From Verrucomicrobiota bacterium (GTDB taxonomy: Bacteria > Verrucomicrobiota > Verrucomicrobiia > Limisphaerales > UBA11358), in contig JBEKSU010000001.1 of NCBI GenBank assembly GCA_049516755.1, positions 1 through 51,306 of the forward strand: a DNA stretch of 51,306 bases, given 5' to 3'. Position 1 is the first letter of the stretch, and the number at the start of each line of letters is the position of its first letter. The notes under the pieces were generated by a model. The model was not told where the DNA came from. It saw only the letters and a list, made by a program, of their open reading frames with translations, and did not search any database. A program made the position numbers and the translations under genes. Of this stretch, positions 1,827 to 36,756 are shown in pieces.

Positions 1827-2599
1827 AAACGATTTTCGCACTGGCCGGCGTCACCCTCAAGGAGCTTTATCGCCGCAAGGATTTTTACGTCCTGTTCATC
1901 ATCACCATTCTGATCTGCCTGGTCATGGCCTCGGTGAACATTTTCAATGACGAAAAAATCATACGTTACCTCAAGGAAATATCCCTGCTGCTGATATGGA
2001 TTTCAGCCCTGGTCATTGCCATCACCACCACCGCGCGGCAAATCCCCGCGGAACGTGAAAACCGCACCCTGCTCCCGCTGCTGGCCAAACCGCTGACACG
2101 GACGCAACTGGTGCTCGGAAAATTTTTCGGCTGCTGGTTTGCCTGCGGCCTGACGCTGGTTTGCTTTTACATCTTCTTTGGCGCGCTGGCGGAAAGCCGG
2201 GAGCACCAGTTGCCGCTGTTGAATTATTTCCAGGCCGCCGCCTTGCACTGGTTCATGCTGGGCATCGTGGTGGCGATTTCACTGCTCGGCTCGCTCGTTT
2301 TTGCGGCGCCCTCGTCCAACTCGACGATTTGTTTTGTCTTCGTCGCGGCCATATTGACCGTGGGCCGGCACATTGGCCAGGTTGCGCTGACACTGCCGGA
2401 ACCGAGTCGCTCCATCGCTTATTCGATCTATTACGCCATTCCCCATCTGGAACTGTTTGACGTGCGCGACTTGATCATCCATGACTGGCCATTGATTGCG
2501 TGGAAGTATTTCGGCCTGGCAGTCCTTTATGCGCTGGCCTACATCTCGGCCTTTCTTGTCGCCGCCTGCCTGGTATTTCGCCGGAAAGCGGTAAATTAG
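1823..2599 (+). CDS. ABC-2 family transporter permease
   Basis: ATGA start/stop overlap with the ATPase gene. About 6 hydrophobic helices (MKTIFALAGVTLKELYRRKDFYVLFIITILICLV...). The upstream extension of ORF 1691..2599 overlaps the ATPase gene and is discounted. Confidence 0.75.
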   Translation: MKTIFALAGVTLKELYRRKDFYVLFIITILICLVMASVNIFNDEKIIRYLKEISLLLIWISALVIAITTTARQIPAERENRTLLPLLAKPLTRTQLVLGKFFGCWFACGLTLVCFYIFFGALAESREHQLPLLNYFQAAALHWFMLGIVVAISLLGSLVFAAPSSNSTICFVFVAAILTVGRHIGQVALTLPEPSRSIAYSIYYAIPHLELFDVRDLIIHDWPLIAWKYFGLAVLYALAYISAFLVAACLVFRRKAVN

Positions 2600-2602
2600 C
2601 GA

Positions 2603-3505
2603 ATGGTTTCATCGCGAACATATTTTTTGCTGCTCATCGCACTGCTGGTTTTGTGTTTTGGCCTCGCTGCCAATTTGGAACCGCAATTTCAATCCATGCG
2701 TTTGAGCCGCGCGTCCGGCGATGTTTTCAAGATTCTGCTGGGCGACAGCCGCGCCCTGTTTGCCAACCATTTCTACGTCAAAGCCGATGAGTATTATCAT
2801 AGCGGCTATTATCCGACCATCTTCGATAACCGTGACGCATTTGAAACACCGCACATGGCCGAGGACACCGGTGCGGTCAACAGCAAAAACCACGGCCCGG
2901 AGGAAGGTTTCCTCGGCCCGCCGCGCGATTGGATTGATGCCTTTGGCCGCCATTTTTTTCCCGACCGGCATACGCACCTGGACGAGGGCGGCCCCACCGA
3001 TGATTTGAGCGGCAGCGAAAACCTCCGCGAAATCCTGCCTTGGTTGAAACTTTCCGCTGATCTCGATCCTGACAACGTCCAGACCTTCACCGTCACTGCC
3101 TACTGGCTGCGGGTGCGCATGCACAAGGTCGCCGAGGCCGACGCCTTTCTGCACGAAGGCCTGCGCCACAATCCCGACAGCTACGACATCCTCTTCGAAC
3201 TGGGCCGGCTTTATGACGAAGATTACCATGACACCGACCGCGCGCGGAATGTCTGGAAACAGGCTGTCCGCAAATGGCTCGCGCTCACGCCGGAGATGCA
3301 AAAGGAAAACAAGCTCGTCTTCGAACAAATCACCACCCATCTCGGCAAACTCGAAAGCGACGCCGGCAATTATGGCCGGGCCGTCGAATGGTTTCGGGCC
3401 GCCCAAAAAATTTCGCTCACGCCCGGCGATCTGCAGAAACGGATTAATGAACTCAAAAAGAAAATGGCGGCGCAACCGTCACCCGCAAACAGCCAGCCGC
3501 ATTGA
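2603..3505 (+). CDS. membrane-anchored TPR-like repeat protein, co-oriented with the ABC-2 pair
   Basis: N-terminal anchor YFLLLIALLVLCFGLA. TPR-like helical repeats (AEADAFLHEGLRHNPDSYDILFELGRLY..., GNYGRAVEWFRAAQKI). Starts 4 nt after the permease stop. Confidence 0.6.
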   Translation: MVSSRTYFLLLIALLVLCFGLAANLEPQFQSMRLSRASGDVFKILLGDSRALFANHFYVKADEYYHSGYYPTIFDNRDAFETPHMAEDTGAVNSKNHGPEEGFLGPPRDWIDAFGRHFFPDRHTHLDEGGPTDDLSGSENLREILPWLKLSADLDPDNVQTFTVTAYWLRVRMHKVAEADAFLHEGLRHNPDSYDILFELGRLYDEDYHDTDRARNVWKQAVRKWLALTPEMQKENKLVFEQITTHLGKLESDAGNYGRAVEWFRAAQKISLTPGDLQKRINELKKKMAAQPSPANSQPH

Positions 3506-3706
3506 AATCACGTCAAATCATTGCATGAGCCGGCGCCAGGAGGCGTTTTCAATTGTTGATCTGCGATTTGCGCGGCGTTCGGGGATGGTAGAAGGACGTA
3601 AATCGCGCATCGAATGTCGTAAATTTGGTCAACATCCCGTGACTGCGGCTTCTATGGTTGAGATTGCGCTTTGTTTTTCCCGCGCCGCTCTGGTTTAATC
3701 GCCGCC

Positions 3707-4369
3707 ATGAAAGCCCGGCAGGCAAAAATCTCGCGCAACACCAAAGAAACCCGCATCGCCGCCAGCCTCAACCTTGACGGCTACGGCAAATCCTCGGTCA
3801 AAACCGGCATCCCGTTCTTCGACCACATGCTCACGCTCTTCGCGAAGCACGCGACAGTGAATTTACAGCTCAAATGCAAGGGCGACCTTGAAGTGGATGC
3901 CCATCACACGGTCGAGGATTGCGGGATCGCGCTCGGCCAGGCGTTCACGCTGGCGCTCGGTGACAAAAGGGGCATCCGCCGTTACGGCGCGGGTTTTCAC
4001 CCGAAAAACCCATTTACCGGCGAAGCCTATGTGCCCATGGACGAATGTCTGGCCCGTTGCGTCATTGATTTTGGCGGGCGGCCGCATCTGGTCTGGCGTG
4101 GACTGAACGAATTTTCCCAGAAACGCGTTGCCCGATCCGAAAAATTCCAGGACCTGTCGAGCGCGTTTCGCTTCGGCCTCGCGCGCGAATTTTTCCAGGC
4201 CTTCACCAACGAAGCCCGCTGCAACCTGCACCTGGAGTTGCTCTACGGCGATGAACCGCATCACATCGTTGAAGCCCTGTTCAAGGCCTTCGCCCGCGCG
4301 ACGGACGCGGCGTGCCGGCGTGACCCGCGCATCGCCGGCCAGTTGCCGAGCACCAAGGGGAAATTGTGA
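3707..4369 (+). CDS. hisB: imidazoleglycerol-phosphate dehydratase
   Basis: RNTKETRI, IPFFDHML, DAHHTVED, GDEPHHIVEALFKAFARA and C-terminal PSTKG are classic IGPD motifs. It has two short insertions relative to typical 195-aa enzymes. Confidence 0.9.
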   Translation: MKARQAKISRNTKETRIAASLNLDGYGKSSVKTGIPFFDHMLTLFAKHATVNLQLKCKGDLEVDAHHTVEDCGIALGQAFTLALGDKRGIRRYGAGFHPKNPFTGEAYVPMDECLARCVIDFGGRPHLVWRGLNEFSQKRVARSEKFQDLSSAFRFGLAREFFQAFTNEARCNLHLELLYGDEPHHIVEALFKAFARATDAACRRDPRIAGQLPSTKGKL

Positions 4370-4495
4370 TGCCGGCCAACGGCTTCCGCTTTCGCTGGTG
4401 ATGTGACAAAACGGTCACCAGGGCCGGTAATGCGTCGCCAATGGTTGCCCCGGGCCAAAAACCGGAACTGTACAATGGTATGGGATGAATCTGAT

Positions 4496-6178
4496 TTATC
4501 GGGTGCGGGTGATTCGAAGCGATGGCAGGGTGGGAAAAGCCGCCCTGCCCTGTGTGGCCTGCGTGTCGCCTTGAACTGGAAGTTTTAATCCATTGAGCTT
4601 CGGAAATTGGCCGGGATTTTTCACGAGCACAAGAGCGAGATTGTCCCGATAGGCCGCCTGCCAGCCGGGTTGTTTCACGAGCGCCAGCGCGCCGGGCAGG
4701 TTTGAGGGCAGCAGCGCAAAATCCGCGCGGGCAATGTCGAGCGCGGCTTGGTCCACCGGTTCGGCGTTGTAAAATTTCCAGTGGGCGGTGATGACCGCAC
4801 GCGGATAACAGGTGTCCAGCCGGCCGTCCAGGGAAACCCGGCTGTCGGGCAGCGCCCAGATGCACATTTCACCCCAATCGAAGAAGACCAACAGATGTCC
4901 ATGCAACTCATGCTCGCGAATGAATTGAACTGCGGATACGGGATACTGCTGGCGCGGCACTTCCATCGTCCAGGCCCGTTCTTTGTGCAGGGTGAAGGTC
5001 GCAGCAATGATGCCGATCGAGGCGAACATGAAAATGGCCGTGAGCATTTTCCGCACACCAGGCCGTTGGCCAAGCTCTTCCAAACGCCGGAAGTGGGCGC
5101 TAAAACGCTGCAGGACATCCGCCAGATGCGGCGGCACAAAAGCCAGCGCGGCGATGCAAAACAGCGGCGTGTGCCGCACGGATCGAAACGCCATGATACC
5201 CAGCGCCGCCAGAACGGCAATTTGCCACAAGGAACGCGGCCGCCGGGACAAAAGAAACGCCCCCACGGCGAAGCCGGCACAAAAAAAGAACGCGGCGTGG
5301 TCCCAATCCGGTTTTGCTGAATTCCACTCGGCGATTTCCGGTCGCAGCCAGAGAACACTTCCAATCAGCCAGCGAATCAATGCGATGCCCCACGGGTTCA
5401 GCAGCAGCGCTGCCGTTGAAATGGCGGCGGAAATCCAGAGGGTGACAACGACGCTTGGTGAAGATTCCGCATCCAGCCAGGAACGAATTGCCGCCGGGCC
5501 GCGTTTTTTGAGAAACAATTGTGTGGTCGTTGCAGCGGCGATTACGAAAAGCAAAATGACTCCGGCCAAAGCACCGCCGTGGGTGTTGATCCAAAGCACG
5601 AACAATGGCGGCAGCGCCAGCGCCCACCCCCGGCGTCCGCGGTGGATTTCCCGCGTGATCCAAAATTGCGCCGCCAGCGCGAGCGCGCTGAAAATTTGTG
5701 GACGCGCCGCAAAGCCGAAGGAAATTTCCACCACGGCCAGCGCGCCAAACGCCCAGGCAACCGCGCGCGTTGGCCGGCTCATCCGGCTTGCGGCGATGAA
5801 CAAGGCGATGCCAAAGGTCAGCAAGCCCGCGGCCATTTTCAGCAGGAGCAATCCCGTTCCGCCAAGCCAGCGATGCGCCCATCCCAGCGCGATTTCCGCG
5901 ACCACTTCATGATTCATCCATTCGTGCCCGTTCGCGGTCCACGAATACGGGTCGGTTTTCATCAACCCGCCGGTTTGCACGGCTTGCTGGCCAAAAAGGA
6001 CGTGCCCCCACAAATCGGGATCGGCCGTGTTTTCGGAGAATTGGAAAACCGCGAGGCATAGAACACAGAGGCAAAAAGCCCGGCGCAAAGTGGAGTCATT
6101 TTGCGCCGAAGACGCGCGAACGGAACCGGTTCCCATGCTCTGCATGGCCGGGAAAATACCCGTTGCCGCGTTAGGCAA
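4496..6178 (-). CDS. polytopic inner-membrane protein with C-terminal soluble domain (possible GT-C/ArnT-like glycosyltransferase)
   Basis: More than 10 predicted TM helices, a DPDLWGH...HEW motif near the first loop, and a soluble tail of about 150 aa. The function is a guess from architecture. The start is uncertain (several in-frame Met). Confidence 0.5.
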   Translation of the reverse strand: MPNAATGIFPAMQSMGTGSVRASSAQNDSTLRRAFCLCVLCLAVFQFSENTADPDLWGHVLFGQQAVQTGGLMKTDPYSWTANGHEWMNHEVVAEIALGWAHRWLGGTGLLLLKMAAGLLTFGIALFIAASRMSRPTRAVAWAFGALAVVEISFGFAARPQIFSALALAAQFWITREIHRGRRGWALALPPLFVLWINTHGGALAGVILLFVIAAATTTQLFLKKRGPAAIRSWLDAESSPSVVVTLWISAAISTAALLLNPWGIALIRWLIGSVLWLRPEIAEWNSAKPDWDHAAFFFCAGFAVGAFLLSRRPRSLWQIAVLAALGIMAFRSVRHTPLFCIAALAFVPPHLADVLQRFSAHFRRLEELGQRPGVRKMLTAIFMFASIGIIAATFTLHKERAWTMEVPRQQYPVSAVQFIREHELHGHLLVFFDWGEMCIWALPDSRVSLDGRLDTCYPRAVITAHWKFYNAEPVDQAALDIARADFALLPSNLPGALALVKQPGWQAAYRDNLALVLVKNPGQFPKLNGLKLPVQGDTQATQGRAAFPTLPSLRITRTR

Positions 6179-28444: not shown

Positions 28445-29920
28445 ATGTCACAGCCGAAGATTATTCAGGGCGGGATGGGTGCGGCCGTGTCCGGCTGGAC
28501 TTTGGCGCGCACGGTTTCGCAATTGGGCCAGCTCGGCGTCGTCTCCGGGACGGGACTGGCCATCATCCTTGCCCGCAGCCTGCAACTGGGCGATCTCGAC
28601 GGTCATCTGCGTCACGCCCTGCAGCGGTTCCCCGTTCCCGAAGTCGCCGCGCGCGTGCTGGCGCAATACTTTGTTCCCGGTGGAAAATCTTCGGCGGCGC
28701 CATTCAAACTCGCTGCCATGCCCACGCTCCGCCCCGGTCCGGCACTCGTGGAATTGACGGTGGTGGCCAACTTCGTGGAAGTGTTTCTGGCCAAGGATGG
28801 CCACGACGGATTGGTCGGGATTAATTTTCTCGAAAAAATCCAGCTGCCCACCTTGCCCTCACTTTACGGCGCGATGCTCGCCGATGTGGATTACGTGCTC
28901 ATGGGCGCCGGCATACCACGCGCTATTCCCGGCGCGCTGGATCGTCTGGCGGCAGGCGAACCGGCCCAACTGAAAATTGATGTCATCGGCGCGTTGCCCG
29001 GCGAGGAATTCCTTTCCATGTTTGACCCGCGCGCTTTCTGCAAAGGCCAACTCCCGGCGGTGAAGCGTCCGCAGTTCCTCGGGATTGTCGCCTCAGTGAC
29101 CCTTGCCATGGCTTTGGCCAGGAAAGCCAGCGGATACGTGGACGGCTTCGTCATCGAAGGCGACACCGCCGGCGGACACAACGCCCCGCCGCGCGGCCCG
29201 CTGCAACTCAACGCCATCGGCGAACCGGTATATGGCCCGCGCGATGTCGTTGACCTCGAAAAAATCCGCGAGCTGGGCCGGCCCTTCTGGCTGGCCGGAT
29301 CGTATGGGCGGCCAGGCCGGCTGGCCGAGGCCTTGCGCCTTGGCGCCTCCGGTGTTCAGGTGGGAACGGCCTTTGCGTTTTGCAACGAATCCGGCCTGCG
29401 TCCCGACCTCAAGCGACAGGCCCTGCAAATGAGCCGTGCCGGCGCCGCGCGCGTTTTCACCGACCCGATTGCCTCGCCCACCGGTTTTCCGTTCAAGGTG
29501 GTTCTGACGCCCGGCACGCTTTCCGATGCCGACCGGTATGCGGCACGGACTCGCATCTGCGACCTGGGGTATCTCCGGCATCTTTATCGCAAACCGGACG
29601 GGACACTGGGCTACCGTTGTCCCGCCGAACCGGTGGATGATTTTGTCAAAAAAGGCGGGACAGTCGCTGACGCGCAAGGCCGCAAATGCCTTTGCAATGC
29701 GCTGGTGGCCAACATCGGCCTCAACCAGTTGCGCTCCAATTCGGAAGAGGAATTGGCGTTGATGACCGCCGGCGACGACGTCGCCCACGTGGCACAATTT
29801 CTCCAGCCGGGTTGCGACACCTACACCGCCGCGGATGTCGTACACTGTTTGTTGGACGAGGCGCTGCCCGTCAACGGGGTTGCTCATTCAGCAGCGCATC
29901 CAAGTCCAGCGCACGTGTGA
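28445..29920 (+). CDS. nitronate monooxygenase / NMO-family FMN oxidoreductase (long form)
   Basis: N-terminus IIQGGMGAAVSGWTLARTVSQLGQLGVVSG. GFVIEGDTAGGHN and GASGVQVGTAF are typical of the NMO/FabK-like TIM-barrel family. Confidence 0.8.
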   Translation: MSQPKIIQGGMGAAVSGWTLARTVSQLGQLGVVSGTGLAIILARSLQLGDLDGHLRHALQRFPVPEVAARVLAQYFVPGGKSSAAPFKLAAMPTLRPGPALVELTVVANFVEVFLAKDGHDGLVGINFLEKIQLPTLPSLYGAMLADVDYVLMGAGIPRAIPGALDRLAAGEPAQLKIDVIGALPGEEFLSMFDPRAFCKGQLPAVKRPQFLGIVASVTLAMALARKASGYVDGFVIEGDTAGGHNAPPRGPLQLNAIGEPVYGPRDVVDLEKIRELGRPFWLAGSYGRPGRLAEALRLGASGVQVGTAFAFCNESGLRPDLKRQALQMSRAGAARVFTDPIASPTGFPFKVVLTPGTLSDADRYAARTRICDLGYLRHLYRKPDGTLGYRCPAEPVDDFVKKGGTVADAQGRKCLCNALVANIGLNQLRSNSEEELALMTAGDDVAHVAQFLQPGCDTYTAADVVHCLLDEALPVNGVAHSAAHPSPAHV

Positions 29921-30374
29921 ACATCGCCAGGCCGCCGTCGGACGTGCGCGGCCACTGTTCCTTCGGACGGTCCCAATAAAGTTCCACGCCGTTGCCATCC
30001 GGATCGCGCAGATAAAGTGCTTCACTCACGCCGTGGTCGGAAGCGCCGTCCAGCTCAATCCCCGCCGCCAGCACCCGTCGCAACGCATCGGCCAGCAGCG
30101 CGCGGGTCGGATACAAAATCGCCACGTGATACAAACCGGTCGCGCCCGGTGGCGGCGGCGAACCGCCTGCACTCTCCCAGGTGTTCAGGCCGATGTGATG
30201 ATGATAGCCGCCGGCGGAAAGAAATGCCGCCTGCGATCCAAAATGTTCTGTCAGTTCAAAGCCGAGCACGTCGCGATAAAATTTCAGCGCGCGTTCGAGG
30301 TCGGCCACCTTCAGATGCACGTGGCCGATGCGAACCCGCGCATCAACGGGCCGGGCTGCCGGATGGTCTTTCAT
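29871..30374 (-). CDS. VOC (glyoxalase/bleomycin-resistance/dioxygenase) family protein
   Basis: IGHVHLKVADLERALKFYRDVLGF, YHHHIGLNTW, YHVAILYP, SEALYLRDPDGNGVELY. Start taken at MKDHPAA. The 3' end overlaps the NMO 3' end by 50 nt (convergent). Confidence 0.8.
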   Translation of the reverse strand: MKDHPAARPVDARVRIGHVHLKVADLERALKFYRDVLGFELTEHFGSQAAFLSAGGYHHHIGLNTWESAGGSPPPPGATGLYHVAILYPTRALLADALRRVLAAGIELDGASDHGVSEALYLRDPDGNGVELYWDRPKEQWPRTSDGGLAMFTRALDLDALLNEQPR

Positions 30375-30436
30375 GATGGCAAGGTGGACGAAAACGGGTG
30401 CGAATGCAAAAATCCGAACGTGTTGTGATGGGCAGA

Positions 30437-30745
30437 CTAACCAGCAAGCTGCGCGCGCACCAATTCGCAAAGTTTCACAACCAGTTGGCTCTTCATGCCA
30501 TAATAAACGCACTGGCCATTCTTTTTTCGGGTCAGGACGCCCCCGGCGGCCAGCAACGCGAGATGCTTGGAAACGTTGGCTTGGGTGGATCCGGTGGCCG
30601 CCACAATGTCATTCACGTTGCGCGGCCCCCGGCAGACCGCCTGCAAAATCCGCAGCCGCATCGGCTCGCCCAGCAGCTTGAACCGGGCCGCGACCTGCCC
30701 GAACTCTTTCGGGGCCACCAACCGCGCAGTTTTTTTATTTGACAT
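30437..30745 (-). CDS. ArsR/SmtB-family transcriptional regulator
   Basis: Winged-helix FKLLGEPMRLRILQAVCRGPRNVNDIVAATGSTQANVSKHLALLAAGGVL. Confidence 0.9.
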   Translation of the reverse strand: MSNKKTARLVAPKEFGQVAARFKLLGEPMRLRILQAVCRGPRNVNDIVAATGSTQANVSKHLALLAAGGVLTRKKNGQCVYYGMKSQLVVKLCELVRAQLAG

Positions 30746-30772
30746 ATAACTATATGGTTATACAATTATAAC
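30746..30772. promoter_or_regulatory. AT-rich overlapping palindromes, candidate ArsR operator
   Basis: ATAAC-TATATG-GTTAT (30746..30761) and GTTATA-CAAT-TATAAC (30757..30772). They sit immediately upstream of arsR, in the divergent promoter region. Confidence 0.45.
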
Positions 30773-30825
30773 ATGATTGAATTGGTTGTCCATCAAAAAG
30801 CGCCTCCACCCGAAGGGCGCTCGCC

Positions 30826-30993
30826 ATGATCCAGCGCCTCGTCATCGGCGCCGTGGCCGGGGCGGTTCTGGGCTTCGGCTGGCACAAGCTGGCCGGCTGT
30901 TCGACCGGCGCTTGTCCATTGACCGCCAATCCTTTTGTAGCCACGCTCTATGGGATGTCCGTGGGCGCGCTGATCGCAACCAGTTTTCATTAA
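30826..30993 (+). CDS. 55-aa two-helix membrane protein with a CxxGxCPLTAN motif (not in the ORF track, under 60 aa)
   Basis: Hand translation: MIQRLVIGAVAGAVLGFGWHKLAGCSTGACPLTANPFVATLYGMSVGALIATSFH. The same module forms the N-terminus of the thioredoxin at 36208. Resembles the small DUF6132-type family, from memory. Confidence 0.6.
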   Translation: MIQRLVIGAVAGAVLGFGWHKLAGCSTGACPLTANPFVATLYGMSVGALIATSFH

Positions 30994-31016
30994 ACCTCAA
31001 CCAGACAACTCTTGAT

Positions 31017-31283
31017 ATGAAAATGGAACTCATCATCCGCCGGTTCGCCGGCACTTTTGTCCTGGCGAGCCTGGTGCTCGCGCACTATCACAGCCCGTAC
31101 TGGCTCTGGGTCACCGCCTTTGTCGGCTTCAACCTGCTGCAATCGTCGTTCACGAAATTCTGTCCGCTGGAAATCATCCTGAGAAAACTCGGGGTCAGCG
31201 GCTCGTGCTGCGGCGAAGGGAAGACCGGCGGGGAACAGGCTGGCGGCTCTTGTTGCTGCGGTGACGCCGGCCACAAGATCTGA
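31017..31283 (+). CDS. DUF2892 / YgaP-like transmembrane-domain protein with a Cys-rich C-terminal tail
   Basis: R-F-AG...WLWVTAFVGFNLLQSSFTKFCPLEIILRKLG matches the YgaP-type TM domain. Tail SGSCCGEGKTGGEQAGGSCCCGDAGH. The N-terminal extension of ORF 30777..31283 is discounted. Confidence 0.7.
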   Translation: MKMELIIRRFAGTFVLASLVLAHYHSPYWLWVTAFVGFNLLQSSFTKFCPLEIILRKLGVSGSCCGEGKTGGEQAGGSCCCGDAGHKI

Positions 31284-31284
31284 T

Positions 31285-32313
31285 ATGAAAATTTTAAAAC
31301 GAGGTGCGAGCCTGGTTGTTTTGATGGCTGCGGCGTTGTTCGCCGGCTGCCGCGGAAAGGTTGCCCCGCCGGTTTCGGAAAACCTTCCGCCGGCCACCGT
31401 CCGCGTACAAACCGTGGAAAACAAATCGCGCGTTGCCACCGAGGACGTGGTGGGCACGGTCCGCGCCAAATTGCGCTCGGTGATTGAGGCCAAAATCAGC
31501 GGTCGGATCGAAAAAATGTTGGTGGTGCCCGGCCAGAACGTGAAGGCGGGCGAACTGCTCGTCCAGCTTGACGCCCGCGAAGTGCAGGCCCAACTCGACC
31601 AGGCGCTGGCCCTGCGCCAGCAGGCGGAAAGCGACTTGAAGCGCGCCACCGACCTGTACCAGCAGAAGATTCTCGCCCAGTCCGAATACGACAACGCCCA
31701 GTCCAAGTTCCGCGTGGCCGACGCGGCGGCCATGGAGGCCGAAACCCTGCTCGGTTACACCAAGGTCATCGCGCCATTCGACGGCGTCATCACCCGAAAA
31801 TACACCGACGTGGGCGACCTCGCCTCGCCAGGCAAACCGCTGCTGGAAATGGAGGACGCCCGCGATTTGCGGCTCGAAGCTGACGTGCCGGAAGCGGTCA
31901 TTGGCCATCTCACCCTCGGCGACAAGCTGGGAGTGCGCGTGTCCGGCGTGACCAACGAACTAGATGGCGTCATCAGCGAAATCGCGCCGTCCGCCGATCC
32001 CAACAGCCGTACCTTTCTCGTCAAGCTTGACCTGCCGTCGGCATCCGGCTTGCGGGCCGGCCAGTTCGGGCGAGCGGCCATGCCGGTGGGCGAAACTTCG
32101 GCCTTGCGGGTGCAGGCTTCCGCCGTCGTGCAACGCGGACAGATGGAACTGGTTTTTGTGGTGGTGAATGGCCACGCGCAATTGCGCATCGTCAAAACCG
32201 GCAAACGCATCGGCGACGAAGTCGAATTGGTCTCCGGCGTGGACGCGGGGGAAAAGGTGGTGGTGGATGGCGCCGCCAATCTGGTTGACGGACAGCCAGT
32301 GGAGGCTAAATGA
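31285..32313 (+). CDS. efflux RND periplasmic adaptor (MFP/HlyD-like) lipoprotein
   Basis: Lipobox LFAGC. Barrel-sandwich and coiled-coil pattern (GRIEKMLVVPGQNVKAGELLVQLD, YTKVIAPFDGVIT). Confidence 0.9.
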   Translation: MKILKRGASLVVLMAAALFAGCRGKVAPPVSENLPPATVRVQTVENKSRVATEDVVGTVRAKLRSVIEAKISGRIEKMLVVPGQNVKAGELLVQLDAREVQAQLDQALALRQQAESDLKRATDLYQQKILAQSEYDNAQSKFRVADAAAMEAETLLGYTKVIAPFDGVITRKYTDVGDLASPGKPLLEMEDARDLRLEADVPEAVIGHLTLGDKLGVRVSGVTNELDGVISEIAPSADPNSRTFLVKLDLPSASGLRAGQFGRAAMPVGETSALRVQASAVVQRGQMELVFVVVNGHAQLRIVKTGKRIGDEVELVSGVDAGEKVVVDGAANLVDGQPVEAK

Positions 32314-32422
32314 ACGCGCGCCCATTCCATGAACCGGACTGTGCGGCCGGCATTCTGCCGGCAGAACTCGAACAGATCTGCCGACGAGACGTCGGCAGCA
32401 CGTTGGTGGCGCGGTCGCTCCC

Positions 32423-35400
32423 ATGAAACCTGAAACCCCAGGCTCAACTGCCGAACACCTTGGCATCGCCGGCCGCATCGCGCGGGCGTTCATTGATTCC
32501 AAGCTCACGCCGCTCATCATCATCACGTCGGTTCTGCTCGGCGTGTTTGCGGTGTGGATGCTGCCGCGCGAGGAGGAACCGCAAATCAAGGTGCCCATGG
32601 TGGACGTGCTCGTCACCATGCCCGGCTCCGGCGCCAAGGAGGTCGAGGAGCGCGTCACCCGCCCGATGGAAAAGCTGCTCTGGGAAATTCCCGGCGTGGA
32701 ATACATTTACTCGACATCGAGCGAAGGCCAGTCGCTGGTCATCGTGCGCTTCAAGGTGGGCGAAGACATGGAAAACAGCCTGGTGAAGCTGAACCAGAAG
32801 CTGCAGCAGAACTTCGACAAAATTCCGCACGGCGTTTCGCAGCCGCTCATCAAGGCACGGTCCATTGACGACGTGCCGATTCTGGCGCTGACATTTCACA
32901 GTTCGCGCTACGATCATCTCACGCTGCGCCGGCTGGTGGCGCAGGTGGACGACGCCGTGAAGCAGGTGCCGCAGGTGGCCGAAACCACCCTGATCGGCGG
33001 CGCGCACCGGCAGTTGCGGGTACTGCTGGACCCGGCGAAGCTCGCCTCGCGCAACCTCAGTCCCGCCGGCCTGGTTCCCATGTTGCAGCAGGCCAACCGC
33101 CAGTATGTCGCCGGCGAACTGACCAGCAACAACAAGGAAGTGGTCGTGGAAACCGGCGCGTTTCTGAAGGATGCCGGGGACGTGGGCAACGTGGTGGTGG
33201 GCGTGTTTGGCGGCAAACCGGTTTATCTGCGTGACGTGGCAACCATCGTGGATGGTTCGGAGGAGCCGTCACAGTACGTTTTTTTTGGTCAAGGTAGCGC
33301 AGGCGTCCCGCCTGCTGCCGAAGCACAAAATAAACCTTCGAATTTGCAGGCCGGAGGCCTGCGCTACGTTGAAGAACCCGCCGTCACGCTGAGCATTGCC
33401 AAGCGACCAGGCGCCAACGCCATTTCCGTCGCGCGGGAGGTGTTGAAAAAAGTTGAAACGCTCAAGGGCCGCGTCATTCCCGCCGACGTGCAGGTGACCG
33501 TCACGCGAAATTACGGCCTGACGGCCGAGGACAAATCCAACGAGCTGCTCTGGCACATGCTCATCGCCGTGGTGGGCGTGTCGCTGCTGATTTTGCTCGC
33601 GCTGGGCTGGCGTGAATCGCTCATCGTGGCCATCGCCATCCCGTCCACGCTCGCGCTGACGCTGCTGGTGTTTTATCTCCACGGGTTCACGCTGAACCGC
33701 ATCACGCTCTTCGCGCTGATTTTTTCCATCGGCATTCTCGTGGACGACGCCATCGTGGTGTTGGAAAATATCGTCCGCCACTTTCACCTGCCCTTCAACA
33801 AGGGCCGCCGGTGGCGGGACATTGCGGTGGAAGCCGTGAACGAAGTCGGCAACCCGACCATTCTCGCCACGTTCGCCGTGATTGCCGCCGTGCTGCCGAT
33901 GGCGTTTGTCGGAGGATTGATGGGGCCTTACATGCGGCCGATTCCCATCGGCTCGAGCGCGGCGATGTTATTCTCGCTGGCCATCGCGTTCATCGTCACG
34001 CCGTGGGCCAGCATCCGCATTCTGCACTGGGGCCGGAAATATTCCTGCCTGACCAAAGGCGCGGCGTGTGTGACCGGGGGAGGCCAGCCGCACCTGCATT
34101 CCGAGCATCCGGAGGATTTTTTCACAAAACTTTATCGCCGGTTCATGGGACCGCTGATCGCGCACCGGAACTGGCGTTATGCGTTTCTGGCCGGCATCAC
34201 CGGGCTGCTGTTGCTGGCGATGGCGCTGGTGGGCATCGGCTGGGTGAAGGTGAAAATGCTGCCGTTCGACAACAAGAGCGAATTCCAGATCATCCTCAAC
34301 ATGCCCGAAGGCAGCTCGCTGGAACGCACCACGGAAGCCGCGCGGGAAATCGCCGCCGCCGTCCGCACCGAACCGGAGGTGACGGACTACGAAATTTATG
34401 CCGGGGTCGCCTCGCCGTTCAATTTCAACGGCCTGGTGCGGCATTATTTCATGCGGCGCGGCGCCAATGTCGCCGACCTCCAGATCAATCTCGTGCCGAA
34501 GAGCAAACGCAAGGCGCAGAGCCACGACATTGCCAAACGCGTGCGTCCGCGCGTGGCCGCCATCGCCGCCAAATACGATGCCCGCGTGGCCGTGGCCGAA
34601 GTGCCGCCCGGCCCGCCGGTGTTGCAGACCCTCGGCGCCGAAATCTACGGGCCCACCGAGAAGGACCGTCTGGCCCTGGCGCAGAAGGTCATTGACATTT
34701 TTCATCAAACGCCGGGAGTCGTGGACACGGACTGGTATATCGAGGCCGACCAGCCGAAGGTTCGTTTTGTCATCGACAAGGAAAAGGCCGCGCTTCACGG
34801 CATCAGCGCCGAAACCATTTCCGAGACGCTGCGCATTGCCGTTGGCGGCGAATCGGTGGATTTGCTGCACGTGCCGCGGGAGAAGGAGGACGTGAACATC
34901 GTCCTGCAACTGCCGCTGGCCAGCCGGACCAGCCCCGAAGAACTGCTGGCGTTGCGCGTCCGCTCCGGCGATGCCAATGCATTGCCCGAACCGGGTTCCA
35001 CGACGGGGGTTCCGCCGTTGATTCCGTTGCGGGAACTCGTGACCATCGAACGGACGATCACCGACAAGAGCATTTACCACAAAAACCTCATGCCGGTGAC
35101 CTACGTCATCGGTGATGTGGCGGGGGTGGTGGAAAGCCCGGTCTATGCCATCCTGAAAATGAACCAGGCCTTGAAGAAGCTGGACACGCGCGAATTCGGC
35201 GGAGACGGTTCGCTATTGAAGATTTACAACGCGCACCTGCCGTTCACCGATTATCAGCCGTCGCTGAAATGGGATGGCGAATGGCATATCACCATTGAGG
35301 TGTTCCGCGACCTCGGCACGGCGTTCGCCGCGTGTCTGGTGTTGATTTACGTGTTGATGGTCGGCTGGTTCCGCTCATTCCTCACACCGTTGATTGTAAT

Positions 35401-35803
35401 GGCGGCCATTCCGTTCTCACTGGTCGGCATCCTGCCGGGGCACGGCGTGTTGCACGCCTTCTTCACGGCCACATCGATGATTGGTTTCATGGCGGGTGCG
35501 GGCATCGTGGTGCGCAATTCCATCATTCTGGTGGACTTCATCGAACAGCGATTGCGCGAAGGCATGCCTCTGGCGGAGGCGGTGGTGGATGCCGGGGCGG
35601 TACGTTTCCGGCCGATGCTGTTGACGGCGCTGGCGGTGGTGGTGGGCGCCAGCGTGATTCTGGCCGATCCGATTTTCCAGGGCCTGGCCATTTCGCTGAT
35701 GGCGGGAGAAATCGCGTCGCTGCTCATCAGCCGCATGGCTGTGCCGGTGCTTTACTTCATGGCCAACAGCGGGAAGGCCGGCGTTGAAATTTCCAAAAAT
35801 TAA
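32423..35803 (+). CDS. RND efflux permease (AcrB/CzcA superfamily)
   Basis: 1126 aa with 12-TM architecture. TM4 [17 protein letters not shown] (DD pair). Two large periplasmic loops. Confidence 0.95.
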
Positions 35804-35807
35804 AAAC

Positions 35808-36176
35808 ATGAATTGGATTGCTTTGCTGATTATCGCAGTTGTTGTCGCGATTGTGTTTGTGATGAAACAAGCCGGTCAGATTTCAGTCCGGGATGCGCTG
35901 GCGCACCTCAAGAGCGGCGCGTTGGTGATTGACGTACGCAGCCCCGGCGAATTCAACTCCGGCCATCTGCCGGCGGCGATCAACATTCCGCTGGACGAAA
36001 TTGAAACCATCCTGCCGCGCCGCGTGAAGGATAAAAATCAGGTGCTGCTGCTGCATTGTCAGAGCGGAATGCGCAGCGGCGCGGCGAAAGGCAAATTGAA
36101 CCGCCTGGGCTACGCGAATGTTTTCAACCTCGGCTCGTATGGCCGTGCGGAAGGCATTTTGAAGCGGCAAAAGTAA
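35808..36176 (+). CDS. membrane-anchored single-domain rhodanese (sulfurtransferase)
   Basis: Anchor WIALLIIAVVVAIVFV. VIDVRSPGEFNSGHLPAAINIP. Active-site loop HCQSGMRS. Confidence 0.85.
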   Translation: MNWIALLIIAVVVAIVFVMKQAGQISVRDALAHLKSGALVIDVRSPGEFNSGHLPAAINIPLDEIETILPRRVKDKNQVLLLHCQSGMRSGAAKGKLNRLGYANVFNLGSYGRAEGILKRQK

Positions 36177-36207
36177 AAGGAAACGACAGCTGAAGGCGAA
36201 GAAAATT

Positions 36208-36756
36208 ATGCAGTCACTTTTGATCTATCTCCTTATCGGTGGAAGCCTCGGCGCATGTCTGGGGCATTTTAACCGGTGCAATTCCGGCGTCTGTCCGCTG
36301 ACGGCAAACTGGCGGCGGGGTGCGCTTTATGGAGCGGTATTGGCGCTGTTGTTTTATTCAATGTCCGGTTGCGGCGATTCCACGGCGATGAACCAGTCCT
36401 CGGCAAACGTAAAGCACATCACGGGCTCGGAGTTCGACGCCGAAGTGACGCGGGCCACGCTGCCGGTGGTGGCGGATTTTTATGCGACCTGGTGCGGTCC
36501 TTGTCGCCAGCTCGCGCCGACCCTGGACGCTTTGGCGGATCAATACGCGGGCAAGATCAAGTTCGTCAAAGTCAATGTGGACGAATCTCCGAAACTGGCG
36601 CAACAATTCCAAATCGAGGTGATCCCGACGCTGCTGTTTTTTAAGGGCGGGAAGCTTGCGGAAACTTCGGTTGGTCTGCTCACGAAGGCGGACCTGATCG
36701 GGCGGCTGGATTCCCTGCTTCAAACCAACGCTCCGCCCGCCGCGCCCGGCCGGTGA
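36208..36756 (+). CDS. thioredoxin fused to an N-terminal CxxGxCPLTAN membrane module
   Basis: N-terminus LLIGGSLGACLGHFNRCNSGVCPLTANWRRGALYGAVLALLF, followed by a classic thioredoxin (VADFYATWCGPCRQLAP, IPTLLFFKGG). Confidence 0.85.
   Translation: MQSLLIYLLIGGSLGACLGHFNRCNSGVCPLTANWRRGALYGAVLALLFYSMSGCGDSTAMNQSSANVKHITGSEFDAEVTRATLPVVADFYATWCGPCRQLAPTLDALADQYAGKIKFVKVNVDESPKLAQQFQIEVIPTLLFFKGGKLAETSVGLLTKADLIGRLDSLLQTNAPPAAPGR

Follow-up and report, generated by a model that had tools for sequence, protein, structure and literature searches.

RND efflux pumps encoded next to genes of sulfide metabolism have been described before. According to Mehta-Kolte et al. (2017, mBio; PMC5358917), the operon Dsui_3440-3443 of Azospira suillum PS, encoding an unknown protein, an RND permease, a sulfide:quinone oxidoreductase (SQR) and a membrane fusion protein (MFP), is prominent in the fitness and RNA-seq data under H2S oxidation. 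Expression of the operon rose strongly with H2S, and that of a DUF2892 gene in another part of the genome about 10-fold. As an explanation for the RND induction, the authors suggested metal-sulfide stress. In a 2025 survey of two-Cys regulators of the ArsR family (PMC12423496), one group is encoded beside RND transporters, including R. capsulatus SqrR and regulators of Halorhodospira, Rhodopila ('RND transporter, Rhd') and others (Table S1), and it was proposed that these pumps move sulfur compounds. SqrR binds an operator in the promoter of the neighbouring rcc1451 (10.1101/2020.03.22.001966), and Trx2 is reported to reduce the polysulfide link of SqrR (PMC10044876). Here, an RND gene cluster is analysed from a 51,306-nucleotide stretch of DNA (the window), which covers positions 1 to 51,306 of contig JBEKSU010000001.1 (assembly GCA_049516755.1). 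The source is a Verrucomicrobiota bacterium, represented by a 3.48-Mb, 90%-complete metagenome-assembled genome (MAG).

The cluster lies at 30437 to 36756 and consists of an arsR gene and, divergent from it, genes for a DUF6132 mini-protein, a DUF2892 membrane protein, an MFP (periplasmic adaptor) lipoprotein, an RND permease, a rhodanese and a DUF6132-thioredoxin fusion. We read it, with a probability of roughly 0.6, as a reactive-sulfur (sulfide, persulfide, polysulfide) stress operon around a dedicated RND efflux pump. The background question is how the sulfane sulfur from sulfide oxidation is disposed of, and how polysulfide is resisted in sulfidic soils and sediments. Since the pump clade is single-copy, unusually conserved, present in about a quarter of the sampled Verrucomicrobiota species and repeatedly tied to persulfide sensors and SQR, it is a concrete, testable candidate for an exporter. 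If the sulfur reading is wrong, the cluster would be another uncharacterised efflux operon.

Comparison with described systems

As in Azospira Dsui_3440-3443, one operon encodes MFP and RND along with proteins of sulfide metabolism and a small uncharacterised protein. However, the Azospira operon has its SQR gene between the pump genes and the window has none, while the window adds DUF6132, rhodanese and the DUF6132-thioredoxin fusion. With the RND-adjacent group of SqrR, BigR and YgaV, the window shares an ArsR repressor gene that adjoins the MFP and RND genes or diverges from them, with a rhodanese or SQR gene nearby. It differs from this group in the regulator, in which Cys38 is off-position and a C-terminal Cys is lacking (most Verrucomicrobial orthologs carry the motif LCELVCG), and in the operator, which is TATAAC-N6-GTTATA-like instead of the ATTC-N8-GAAT of SqrR.

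E. coli YgaV-YgaP resembles the window in having an ArsR regulator, a rhodanese domain with the same HCQxGxR loop and a two-helix DUF2892 domain with an FC motif. In the window, however, the two halves of YgaP are separate genes, 4.5 kb apart and flanking a pump. Moreover, the rhodanese of YgaP is cytoplasmic, whereas that of the window, with an N-terminal anchor of its own, probably resides in the periplasm, as PspE does. HAE1 pumps such as AcrAB-TolC share with the window pump the lipoprotein adaptor, an Asp-Asp pair in transmembrane helix 4 (TM4), an Arg and a Thr in TM11 and, as is assumed for the window, an unlinked outer-membrane factor (OMF). In contrast to them, the window pump belongs to a separate deep clade, has a clade-wide Arg for Lys940 of AcrB and stays under all curated NCBIfam cut-offs. 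Small membrane partners are known for HAE1 pumps, namely AcrZ with AcrAB-TolC and MexG in MexGHI-OpmD, and may be compared with the small membrane protein encoded with the window pump.

A first reading of the DNA, made from the sequence only (hereafter the sequence-only reading), had taken the cluster for a unit not yet described. This cannot be upheld, as an H2S-induced RND/SQR operon is published (PMC5358917) and SqrR-type ArsR regulators beside RND transporters are tabulated (PMC12423496). Loci of this general kind, which pair an ArsR of the persulfide-sensor type with an RND pump and sulfur genes, have already been published as an unexplained association. The locus itself is new in five respects: its non-canonical sensor cysteines, two DUF6132 modules of which one is fused to thioredoxin, the split YgaP, the lack of SQR and the lack of an OMF gene in the operon. 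The literature search found no functional study of this pump, of DUF2892 with a pump or of DUF6132, nor any exporter for zero-valent sulfur.

Conservation of the cluster

Genes were called from the table of open reading frames (ORFs) and assigned to families by Pfam and NCBIfam scans. The seven genes named by the sequence-only reading, for ArsR, a 55-aa protein, a DUF2892 protein, MFP, RND, rhodanese and thioredoxin, were all found again in the same places and with the same motifs. The plus-strand genes are closely spaced, no terminator-like sites occur in the intergenic gaps of the operon, and the G+C content is even throughout the cluster region.

The gene arrangement is far beyond chance and recurs at orthologous pumps in dozens of genomes. 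The permease is 62-87% identical in 80 loci (numbered with an L below) of Verrucomicrobiota, Ignavibacteria, Desulfobulbaceae, Myxococcota and others; the related loci are named as Verrucomicrobiae and Verrucomicrobiota MAGs of soil or freshwater origin. Of 301 species sampled from the phylum, 73 carry a member of the pump clade, with few exceptions in one copy, and the clade is also found in many Proteobacteria, Cyanobacteria and Bacteroidota. The window proteins together with SQR and OMF seeds were mapped on the 80 loci by tblastn and iterative hidden Markov model searches, and 485 neighbour ORFs were grouped into families by sequence clustering, with Pfam scans of representatives. Partners were counted where the sequence extends 2 kb or more upstream of the adaptor gene, which left 65 loci. 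DUF2892 is found at or near the pump in 42 of these, ArsR in 29, OMF in 27 (its gene placed between those for DUF2892 and MFP), DUF6132 in 16, rhodanese in 15, thioredoxin in 8 and SQR in 4; in 47 loci, one or more partners of the sulfur or thiol type are present. The association of DUF2892, rhodanese and thioredoxin with an RND pair, on which the sequence-only reading had staked its proposal, is a conserved neighbourhood.

The core of ArsR and DUF2892-MFP-RND recurs in Verrucomicrobiota, Ignavibacteria, Myxococcota and Pseudomonadota MAGs, with DUF6132, rhodanese, thioredoxin and OMF as variable members. Most loci with both ArsR and DUF2892 have arsR pointing away from DUF2892-(OMF)-MFP-RND, and a rhodanese gene often comes after the latter. 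Fusions of SQR with rhodanese and of rhodanese with DUF2892 (YgaP-like) occur in L018, L020 and L027. Among very close relatives, the accessory genes are reshuffled and not lost: thioredoxin and rhodanese shift place, yet stay near the pump. In L119 (94% pump identity), DUF6132-thioredoxin, thioredoxin, DUF6132, DUF2892, MFP and RND stand in a single row. In L120/L121 (88% pump identity), a 63-aa ORF, a 278-aa Thioredoxin_7-rhodanese fusion and a CLC-type channel are found upstream of arsR (2312-5137). The sole DUF2892 and DUF6132 genes of the source genome sit in this cluster, and the contigs bearing the other RND pump genes of the genome gave no match for DUF2892, DUF6132 or rhodanese.

The sequence-only reading had also pointed to the absence of an OMF gene. 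The cluster indeed has none; as a notable trait, however, this is merely local, given the related loci with an OMF gene. Elsewhere, the source genome encodes six or more OMFs, of which none is orthologous to the OMF of the relatives (best 28% identity). An unlinked OMF, as TolC is for AcrAB, would be the simplest assumption for this pump.

Sulfide-linked homologs in cultured bacteria

Annotated homologs, which belong to the same clade or have 40-56% pump identity, were retrieved by tblastn of plasmid and chromid records. In Paracoccus denitrificans PD1222, an MBL-fold hydrolase (a persulfide dioxygenase (PDO) candidate), DUF2892, YeeE, DUF6691, a TIGR01244 sulfurtransferase, ArsR, cytochromes c and b, a second DUF2892, MFP and RND are encoded, together with a divergent FAD/NAD(P)-binding (SQR-like) oxidoreductase. 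Rhizobium rhizogenes has ArsR divergent from CMD, SQR, DUF2892, MFP and RND. In Azospirillum brasilense, an FAD-dependent oxidoreductase of SQR size and DUF2892 are divergent from MFP-RND-rhodanese, followed by ArsR, and in Novosphingobium, TolC, DUF2892 and an SQR-like flavoprotein are divergent from MFP-RND-ArsR. The order in Pseudanabaena is ArsR, DUF2892, SQR-like flavoprotein, ArsR, rhodanese, MFP, RND and DsbA, while in Vibrio DUF2892 is divergent from MFP-RND. DUF2892 is near the pump in 6 of the 8 annotated proteobacterial and cyanobacterial homolog loci and directly upstream of MFP in two of them (Paracoccus and R. rhizogenes); it is also directly upstream of the adaptor gene in the window.

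An SQR or SQR-like flavoprotein is encoded in 5 of these 8 loci and in 6 of the 80 relatives. In R. rhizogenes, the flavoprotein is an SQR of type I (Acidithiobacillus enzyme, 451 bits), and in the Verrucomicrobial locus L032 it is one of type II (solved SQR chain 8dhk, 165 bits; mitochondrial SQR, 163 bits), while those of Paracoccus, Azospirillum, Novosphingobium and Pseudanabaena are SQR-like by generic annotation or size alone. Two verified SQR types beside one pump clade argue for a link through function rather than through shared ancestry of a gene block. The sequence-only reading had left the choice between reactive sulfur species and a thiophilic metal(loid). Of the two, the sulfur or persulfide part is favoured by the comparative context, which ties the pump clade to SQR types I and II, to rhodanese and, in Paracoccus, to the PDO candidate, YeeE and TIGR01244; the metal(loid) part finds little support.

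Placement of the pump

The RND permease gene (32423..35803, plus strand) encodes a protein of 1126 aa that matches ACR_tran with 540 bits in three stretches. The permease stays under the cut-off of every NCBIfam RND model. The best match is NF033617 (429 versus 1250 bits); TIGR00915 gives 288 bits (cut-off 940) and TIGR00914 (CusA/CzcA) 224 bits (cut-off 701). Solved structures in the PDB score about 160-217 bits, with HAE1 and HME pumps near-equal. In a maximum-likelihood tree, the permease, its relatives and four annotated homologs, the pumps of Paracoccus, Vibrio, Flammeovirga and Pseudanabaena, form one clade with an approximate likelihood ratio (SH-aLRT) support of 100 and a branch of 1.45 substitutions/site. 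AcrB, MdtB and MdtC of E. coli, the three other full-length pumps of the same genome and CusA fall outside this clade, and no sequence in the tree is more distant than CusA. With its few references, the tree does not fix the place of the clade among the TCDB subfamilies. Within this small set, the permease clusters with the SQR-linked pumps, away from the HAE1 and HME references; judged from its sequence, the pump belongs to a deep RND clade distinct from the AcrB/MdtBC-type pumps and from CusA.

The key residues are mixed with respect to HAE1 and unlike those of CusA. Of the proton-relay residues, the pair D441/D442 in TM4 and R1061 and T1068 in TM11 are retained (D407/D408, R971 and T978 in AcrB). 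At the position of the TM10 Lys940 of AcrB, the permease has R1031 (window 35513-35515); this residue is Arg in every aligned clade member, within the motif IV[VI]RNS[IV]. The relay Met positions of CusA (M573/M623/M672) are Ile, Val and Ala in the permease, and TM4 has DD versus D-A in CusA. Membership of the HME (Cus/Czc) group is rejected by residues, scores and tree, and grouping with HAE1 (AcrB/MexB/MdtBC) by the family cut-offs and the position outside the AcrB/MdtBC clade. The sequence-only reading had made its proposal depend on this placement, and by tree and NCBIfam cut-offs, and for HME also by key residues, the pump is neither an ordinary HAE1 nor an HME pump.

The adaptor gene (31285..32313, plus strand) encodes an MFP lipoprotein with 224 bits to TIGR01730 (RND_mfp) and a match to HlyD_D23. 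Its ORF opens at a GTG at 31261, and the DUF2892 gene stops at 31283. The likely start is the ATG at 31285, two bases past this stop, which gives the lipobox LFAGC. The N-terminus of the MFP is neither Met- nor His-rich.

Between the MFP and RND genes lies a 109-nt spacer (32314..32422, plus strand) with two hairpins. Their core, CTGCCGACGAGACGTCGGCAG, is found again on over 20 further contigs of the genome, the gap is 11 nt in relatives such as L001, and no T-run terminator was found in the spacer. As a regulatory element the spacer was rejected, being a dispersed palindrome of the repetitive extragenic palindrome (REP) kind that is absent in relatives. It is a REP-like insertion within the operon and no feature of the system.

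Control region and ArsR regulator

The arsR gene (30437..30745, minus strand) encodes a repressor of the ArsR/SmtB family of 102 aa with Cys38, Cys79 and Cys93. It matches HTH_5 and HTH_20 of Pfam and HTH_metalloreg of NCBIfam (70.4 bits versus a cut-off of 55). Its PDB matches are ArsR, SmtB, YgaV, SqrR and BigR, all in line with the ArsR/SmtB winged-helix fold. The 80-bp intergenic region between arsR and the DUF6132 gene contains two back-to-back promoter-like sites, each with 11/12 consensus positions: TTGACA-16-TACAAT on the plus strand and TGGACA-16-TATAAT on the minus strand. A palindrome, TATAACTATATGGTTATA, is located at 30745-30762, with the -35 element of the plus-strand promoter on one side and its -10 element on the other. 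The divergent promoter/operator region spans 30739..30792. In the three closest loci, which have the same layout (L001, L002, L041), the block of promoters and palindrome is near-invariant, while the downstream leader diverges. Such a layout of divergent promoters with a palindrome is the one expected for an autoregulated repressor that also controls a divergent operon, with binding of the repressor to the palindrome as a prediction.

The cysteine positions of the regulator were assigned by alignment to E. coli YgaV and to the canonical regulators of Paracoccus, Rhizobium, Azospirillum and Novosphingobium. At the canonical alpha-2 Cys position (L-x-L-C), the window ArsR has a Gln, and Cys38 lies three residues further on. 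The C-terminal Cys of alpha-5 is missing, and Cys93 lies about 8 residues (two helical turns) earlier in this helix. Cys93 (LCE, in the motif LC[ED]) is kept in nearly all pump-linked Verrucomicrobial and Ignavibacterial ArsR orthologs. Two layouts are seen among them. Cys38 with Cys93 is found in the window, L001, L002, L041, L120 and one Pseudanabaena regulator, and LCELVCG, with CxxxC in alpha-5, in most Verrucomicrobial, Opitutaceae and Ignavibacterial copies. Both layouts differ from the canonical SqrR/YgaV Cys pair (orthologs in L001-L078), which is present in the pump-adjacent regulators of the proteobacteria (Paracoccus, Rhizobium, Azospirillum and Novosphingobium). The sensor cysteines can shift while the gene context stays constant. 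The window ArsR lacks the cysteine marks of the SqrR/BigR/YgaV subfamily, yet may well act in a persulfide-sensor-like way; a Cys-based metal site is also conceivable from its sequence.

Small membrane proteins, rhodanese and thioredoxin

The DUF2892/YgaP-TM-like gene (31017..31283, plus strand) encodes a two-helix membrane protein of 88 aa (Pfam YgaP-like_TM, 42.5 bits). It is 27% identical to E. coli YgaP over the C-terminal TM half of the latter, has the conserved FCP cysteine and ends in a CC...CCC tail, SCCGEGKTGGEQAGGSCCCGDAGHKI (SCCGEG...SCCCGDAGHKI). CC-containing tails are common in the Verrucomicrobial copies of DUF2892; copies of the Opitutaceae type have a Trp/Gly-rich tail instead. 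The single-domain rhodanese (35784..36176, plus strand; HCQSGMRS, Pfam Rhodanese 59.3 bits) aligns with the N-terminal half of YgaP at 36% identity. The view of the sequence-only reading that a YgaP is split here is borne out by these two alignments to the respective halves. The start of the rhodanese gene overlaps or abuts the stop of the RND gene (35784 versus 35803). The best NCBIfam matches of the rhodanese include PspE, with 57 bits under a cut-off of 102.

The rhodanese has a hydrophobic anchor at its N-terminus, and a signal peptide or TM anchor is found on most rhodaneses adjoining orthologous pumps. The stand-alone thioredoxins in the pump neighbourhoods have neither, and several of them resemble Trx2 and have a zinc finger. 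From this, the rhodanese would be expected to face the periplasm and the thioredoxin to be cytoplasmic.

DUF6132 (PF19628) occurs twice in the cluster. The 55-aa mini-protein (30826..30993, plus strand) scores 34.9 bits and the N-terminus of the thioredoxin 56.7 bits, both above the cut-off of 23.2. In the mini-protein, two Gly-rich hydrophobic helices flank GC-x2-G-x-CP (GCSTGACP), and orthologs keep GC[SP][ST]G[AT]CP[LI]T. The fusion protein (36208..36756, plus strand) has 182 aa, of which the first 50 or so are the second DUF6132 module. Its thioredoxin part (Pfam Thioredoxin, 106.7 bits) has WCGPC and reaches 111.1 bits with TIGR01068 against a cut-off of 96.8, as a TrxA-type thioredoxin does. 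A DUF6132-thioredoxin fusion is also encoded upstream of the pump in L025 and L119.

A word-based protein search from DUF6132 returned close Verrucomicrobial copies and no distant relatives. In the phylum to which the Ignavibacteria locus L051 belongs, 251 sampled genomes were searched with the Pfam model, and 14 of them have DUF6132 genes. At these 14 loci, thioredoxin-like domains are the commonest neighbours (Thioredoxin_2 in 10 and Thioredoxin_7 in 8 of 66 ORFs scanned), which indicates that the association of DUF6132 with thioredoxin is general. DUF6132 genes outside the cluster (L123-L136) mostly adjoin, or are fused to, genes for thioredoxin-like proteins (Thioredoxin_2, Thioredoxin_7, DsbH-like). 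On Riemerella anatipestifer plasmids (L122, 6681-7156), a DUF6132 gene starts 3 nt after an HMA-domain gene. A role as a small partner in the membrane, for thiol-redox or for metal-binding proteins, is possible for DUF6132. Specific partners can now be named for two small membrane families that are uncharacterised, namely the pump for DUF2892 and thioredoxin-fold proteins for DUF6132.

Proposed function and alternative explanations

The observations on gene content, conserved synteny, clade placement and promoter/operator architecture allow a working model to be drawn up, in which inducer, cargo, topology and protein contacts would be those indicated by gene context and by the published work on related loci. 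The ArsR-family repressor would bind the palindrome within the two back-to-back near-consensus promoters and shut off arsR and the plus-strand unit. It would be released by modification of its cysteines with sulfane sulfur, as in SqrR, BigR and YgaV, the sensing residues probably being Cys93 with Cys38 here and Cys93 with its CxxxC partner in most orthologs. The DUF2892 protein, MFP and RND would then act jointly with an OMF encoded elsewhere. Their cargo might be a sulfur-derived, probably membrane-partitioning species taken from the inner membrane or periplasm; polysulfide, elemental sulfur and organic polysulfides are candidates. Sulfane sulfur would be transferred by the rhodanese, which is membrane-anchored and probably periplasmic. 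Thiols that carry a persulfide or are bridged by polysulfide, perhaps those of the sensor among them, would be reduced by the membrane-tethered thioredoxin together with the DUF6132 modules.

Several points weigh against a sulfur stress operon. No SQR was found in the window or in the 90%-complete genome with three SQR query types, nor were YeeE and TIGR01244 detected in this genome, where the match for the MBL-fold protein was weak. With SQR undetected, the pump cannot serve an SQR in this genome. The sequence-only reading had pointed to ArsR-family regulators of the BigR/SqrR type as known parts. Membership of the window regulator in that subfamily is not supported, as it lacks the canonical SqrR/BigR/YgaV two-Cys arrangement and scores 28.5 bits with the BigR equivalog NF040642, the cut-off being 155; the ATTC-N8-GAAT box of SqrR was not found at the window operator either. 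In the pump family, neither a conserved Cys nor any other feature pointing to sulfur was found. The Cys-rich tails would suit metal binding as well, and the DUF6132 gene of Riemerella follows an HMA-domain gene. The inducer assigned to the window organism is borrowed entirely from related loci. The pumps of Azospira and R. capsulatus are putative relatives of the clade, likened to it through the descriptions in the papers. Deletion of the Azospira operon left the H2S oxidation rate, the one assay reported, unchanged (PMC5358917).

If the sulfur reading is right, the lack of a detectable SQR means that the operon defends against sulfur species from outside or from other pathways. The window shows that the core of DUF2892-MFP-RND with ArsR can persist in such a genome. 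A bolder version would make the DUF2892-MFP-RND clade a dedicated exporter of zero-valent sulfur (polysulfide or elemental sulfur), which partitions into membranes, with the cysteine-bearing DUF2892 protein as an obligatory inner-membrane partner. The Verrucomicrobial version would then be an SQR-free defence against polysulfide from the environment, switched by a new Cys arrangement in ArsR (Cys93 with Cys38 or with a CxxxC partner), and DUF6132 a minimal two-helix thiol-redox module working with thioredoxin-fold proteins. We put this forward tentatively, as an idea that may well prove wrong. If true, a zero-valent exporter would explain how sulfur made by SQR, or invading from outside, leaves Gram-negative cells.

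The alternative that survives best, while being unlikely, is resistance to a thiophilic metal(loid) (Hg, Cd, As, Cu/Ag, Te or Se). ArsR would be a Cys-based metal sensor, the DUF2892 tail and the CxxGxCP of DUF6132 would bind or relay the metal, the RND pump would expel it from the periplasm, and rhodanese and thioredoxin would supply or repair thiols. A metal sensor would fit the best family match of the regulator, which is a generic metalloregulator model, and its cysteines, which are off the SqrR positions here and form CxxxC in alpha-5 in most orthologs. The alpha-5 helix forms the metal sites in sensors of the SmtB/CzrA type. Binding or relay would be in keeping with the likeness of the CC...CCC-His tails to metal ligands and with the place of the Riemerella plasmid gene directly after that for an HMA-domain protein, and an ArsP-type permease is a neighbour in two loci. 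Against this explanation, the pump lacks the Met triad of CusA, has DD and not D-A in TM4, scores far under the CusA/CzcA cut-off and stands apart from CusA in the tree; we take it that the Czc motif DFG...DGA is lacking too. The MFP does not have the Met- or His-rich N-terminus either. As for neighbours, the recurrent clusters examined hold no P-type ATPase, CDF, mer or other ars genes apart from the ArsP-family permease of two loci, whereas SQR, rhodanese and thioredoxin do recur and Paracoccus adds PDO and YeeE. The lack of a detectable SQR in the source genome and the metal-sulfide stress proposed by the Azospira authors for the RND induction (PMC5358917) count on the side of metals.

Less likely again is a role in general upkeep of envelope thiols. 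DUF6132, thioredoxin and rhodanese would keep thiols of the periplasm or membrane reduced, the pump would remove oxidised or electrophile-conjugated thiol compounds rather than inorganic sulfur, and ArsR would sense disulfide or electrophile stress. In favour of this, thioredoxin-like domains are the commonest neighbours at the 14 DUF6132 loci of another phylum and DUF6132-thioredoxin fusions are recurrent. DsbA follows the pump in Pseudanabaena, the Thioredoxin_7-rhodanese fusion is nearby in L120, and AhpD/CMD-type genes are present in two homolog loci. However, the repeated recruitment of two SQR types beside the pump and the PDO and YeeE of Paracoccus would be left unexplained. Moreover, DUF6132 (16/65) and thioredoxin (8/65) are the least constant members, and DUF2892-MFP-RND is the core. 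An ordinary multidrug or xenobiotic efflux pump with incidental sulfur-type neighbours is very improbable, since the name 'multidrug efflux pump subunit AcrB' in the sources and the retained HAE-type DD pair and TM11 Arg and Thr are set against a DUF2892 and ArsR synteny kept across several phyla down to 40% pump identity, a distinct single-copy clade with unusually high conservation (62-87% identity across phyla) and the lack of a DUF2892 or DUF6132 gene on the contigs of the other RND pumps of the genome.

Neighbouring genes

A VOC/glyoxalase-family gene (29871-30512, minus strand) lies on the same strand as arsR and downstream of it. Both this gene and an SDR gene after the thioredoxin gene were considered as operon members, which is not supported, as neither is kept beside the pump in relatives. 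As annotated, the VOC/glyoxalase ORF overlaps the 3' end of arsR, and its true start is probably an internal Met near 30377. In L120/L121, the three genes upstream of arsR separate the glyoxalase/epimerase genes from arsR; in the window, arsR directly follows the glyoxalase-like gene.

In the Desulfobulbaceae loci L062, L063 and L071, OMF-MFP-RND is preceded by two NuoM/NuoN-like genes, with no ArsR or DUF2892 upstream. The next gene in L063, in L071 and in L068 (a Pseudomonadota MAG) encodes an RlmL-like methyltransferase of 717-743 aa. The context of the pump in the Desulfobulbaceae is unlike the Verrucomicrobial one, and it is mainly OMF-MFP-RND that is kept there.

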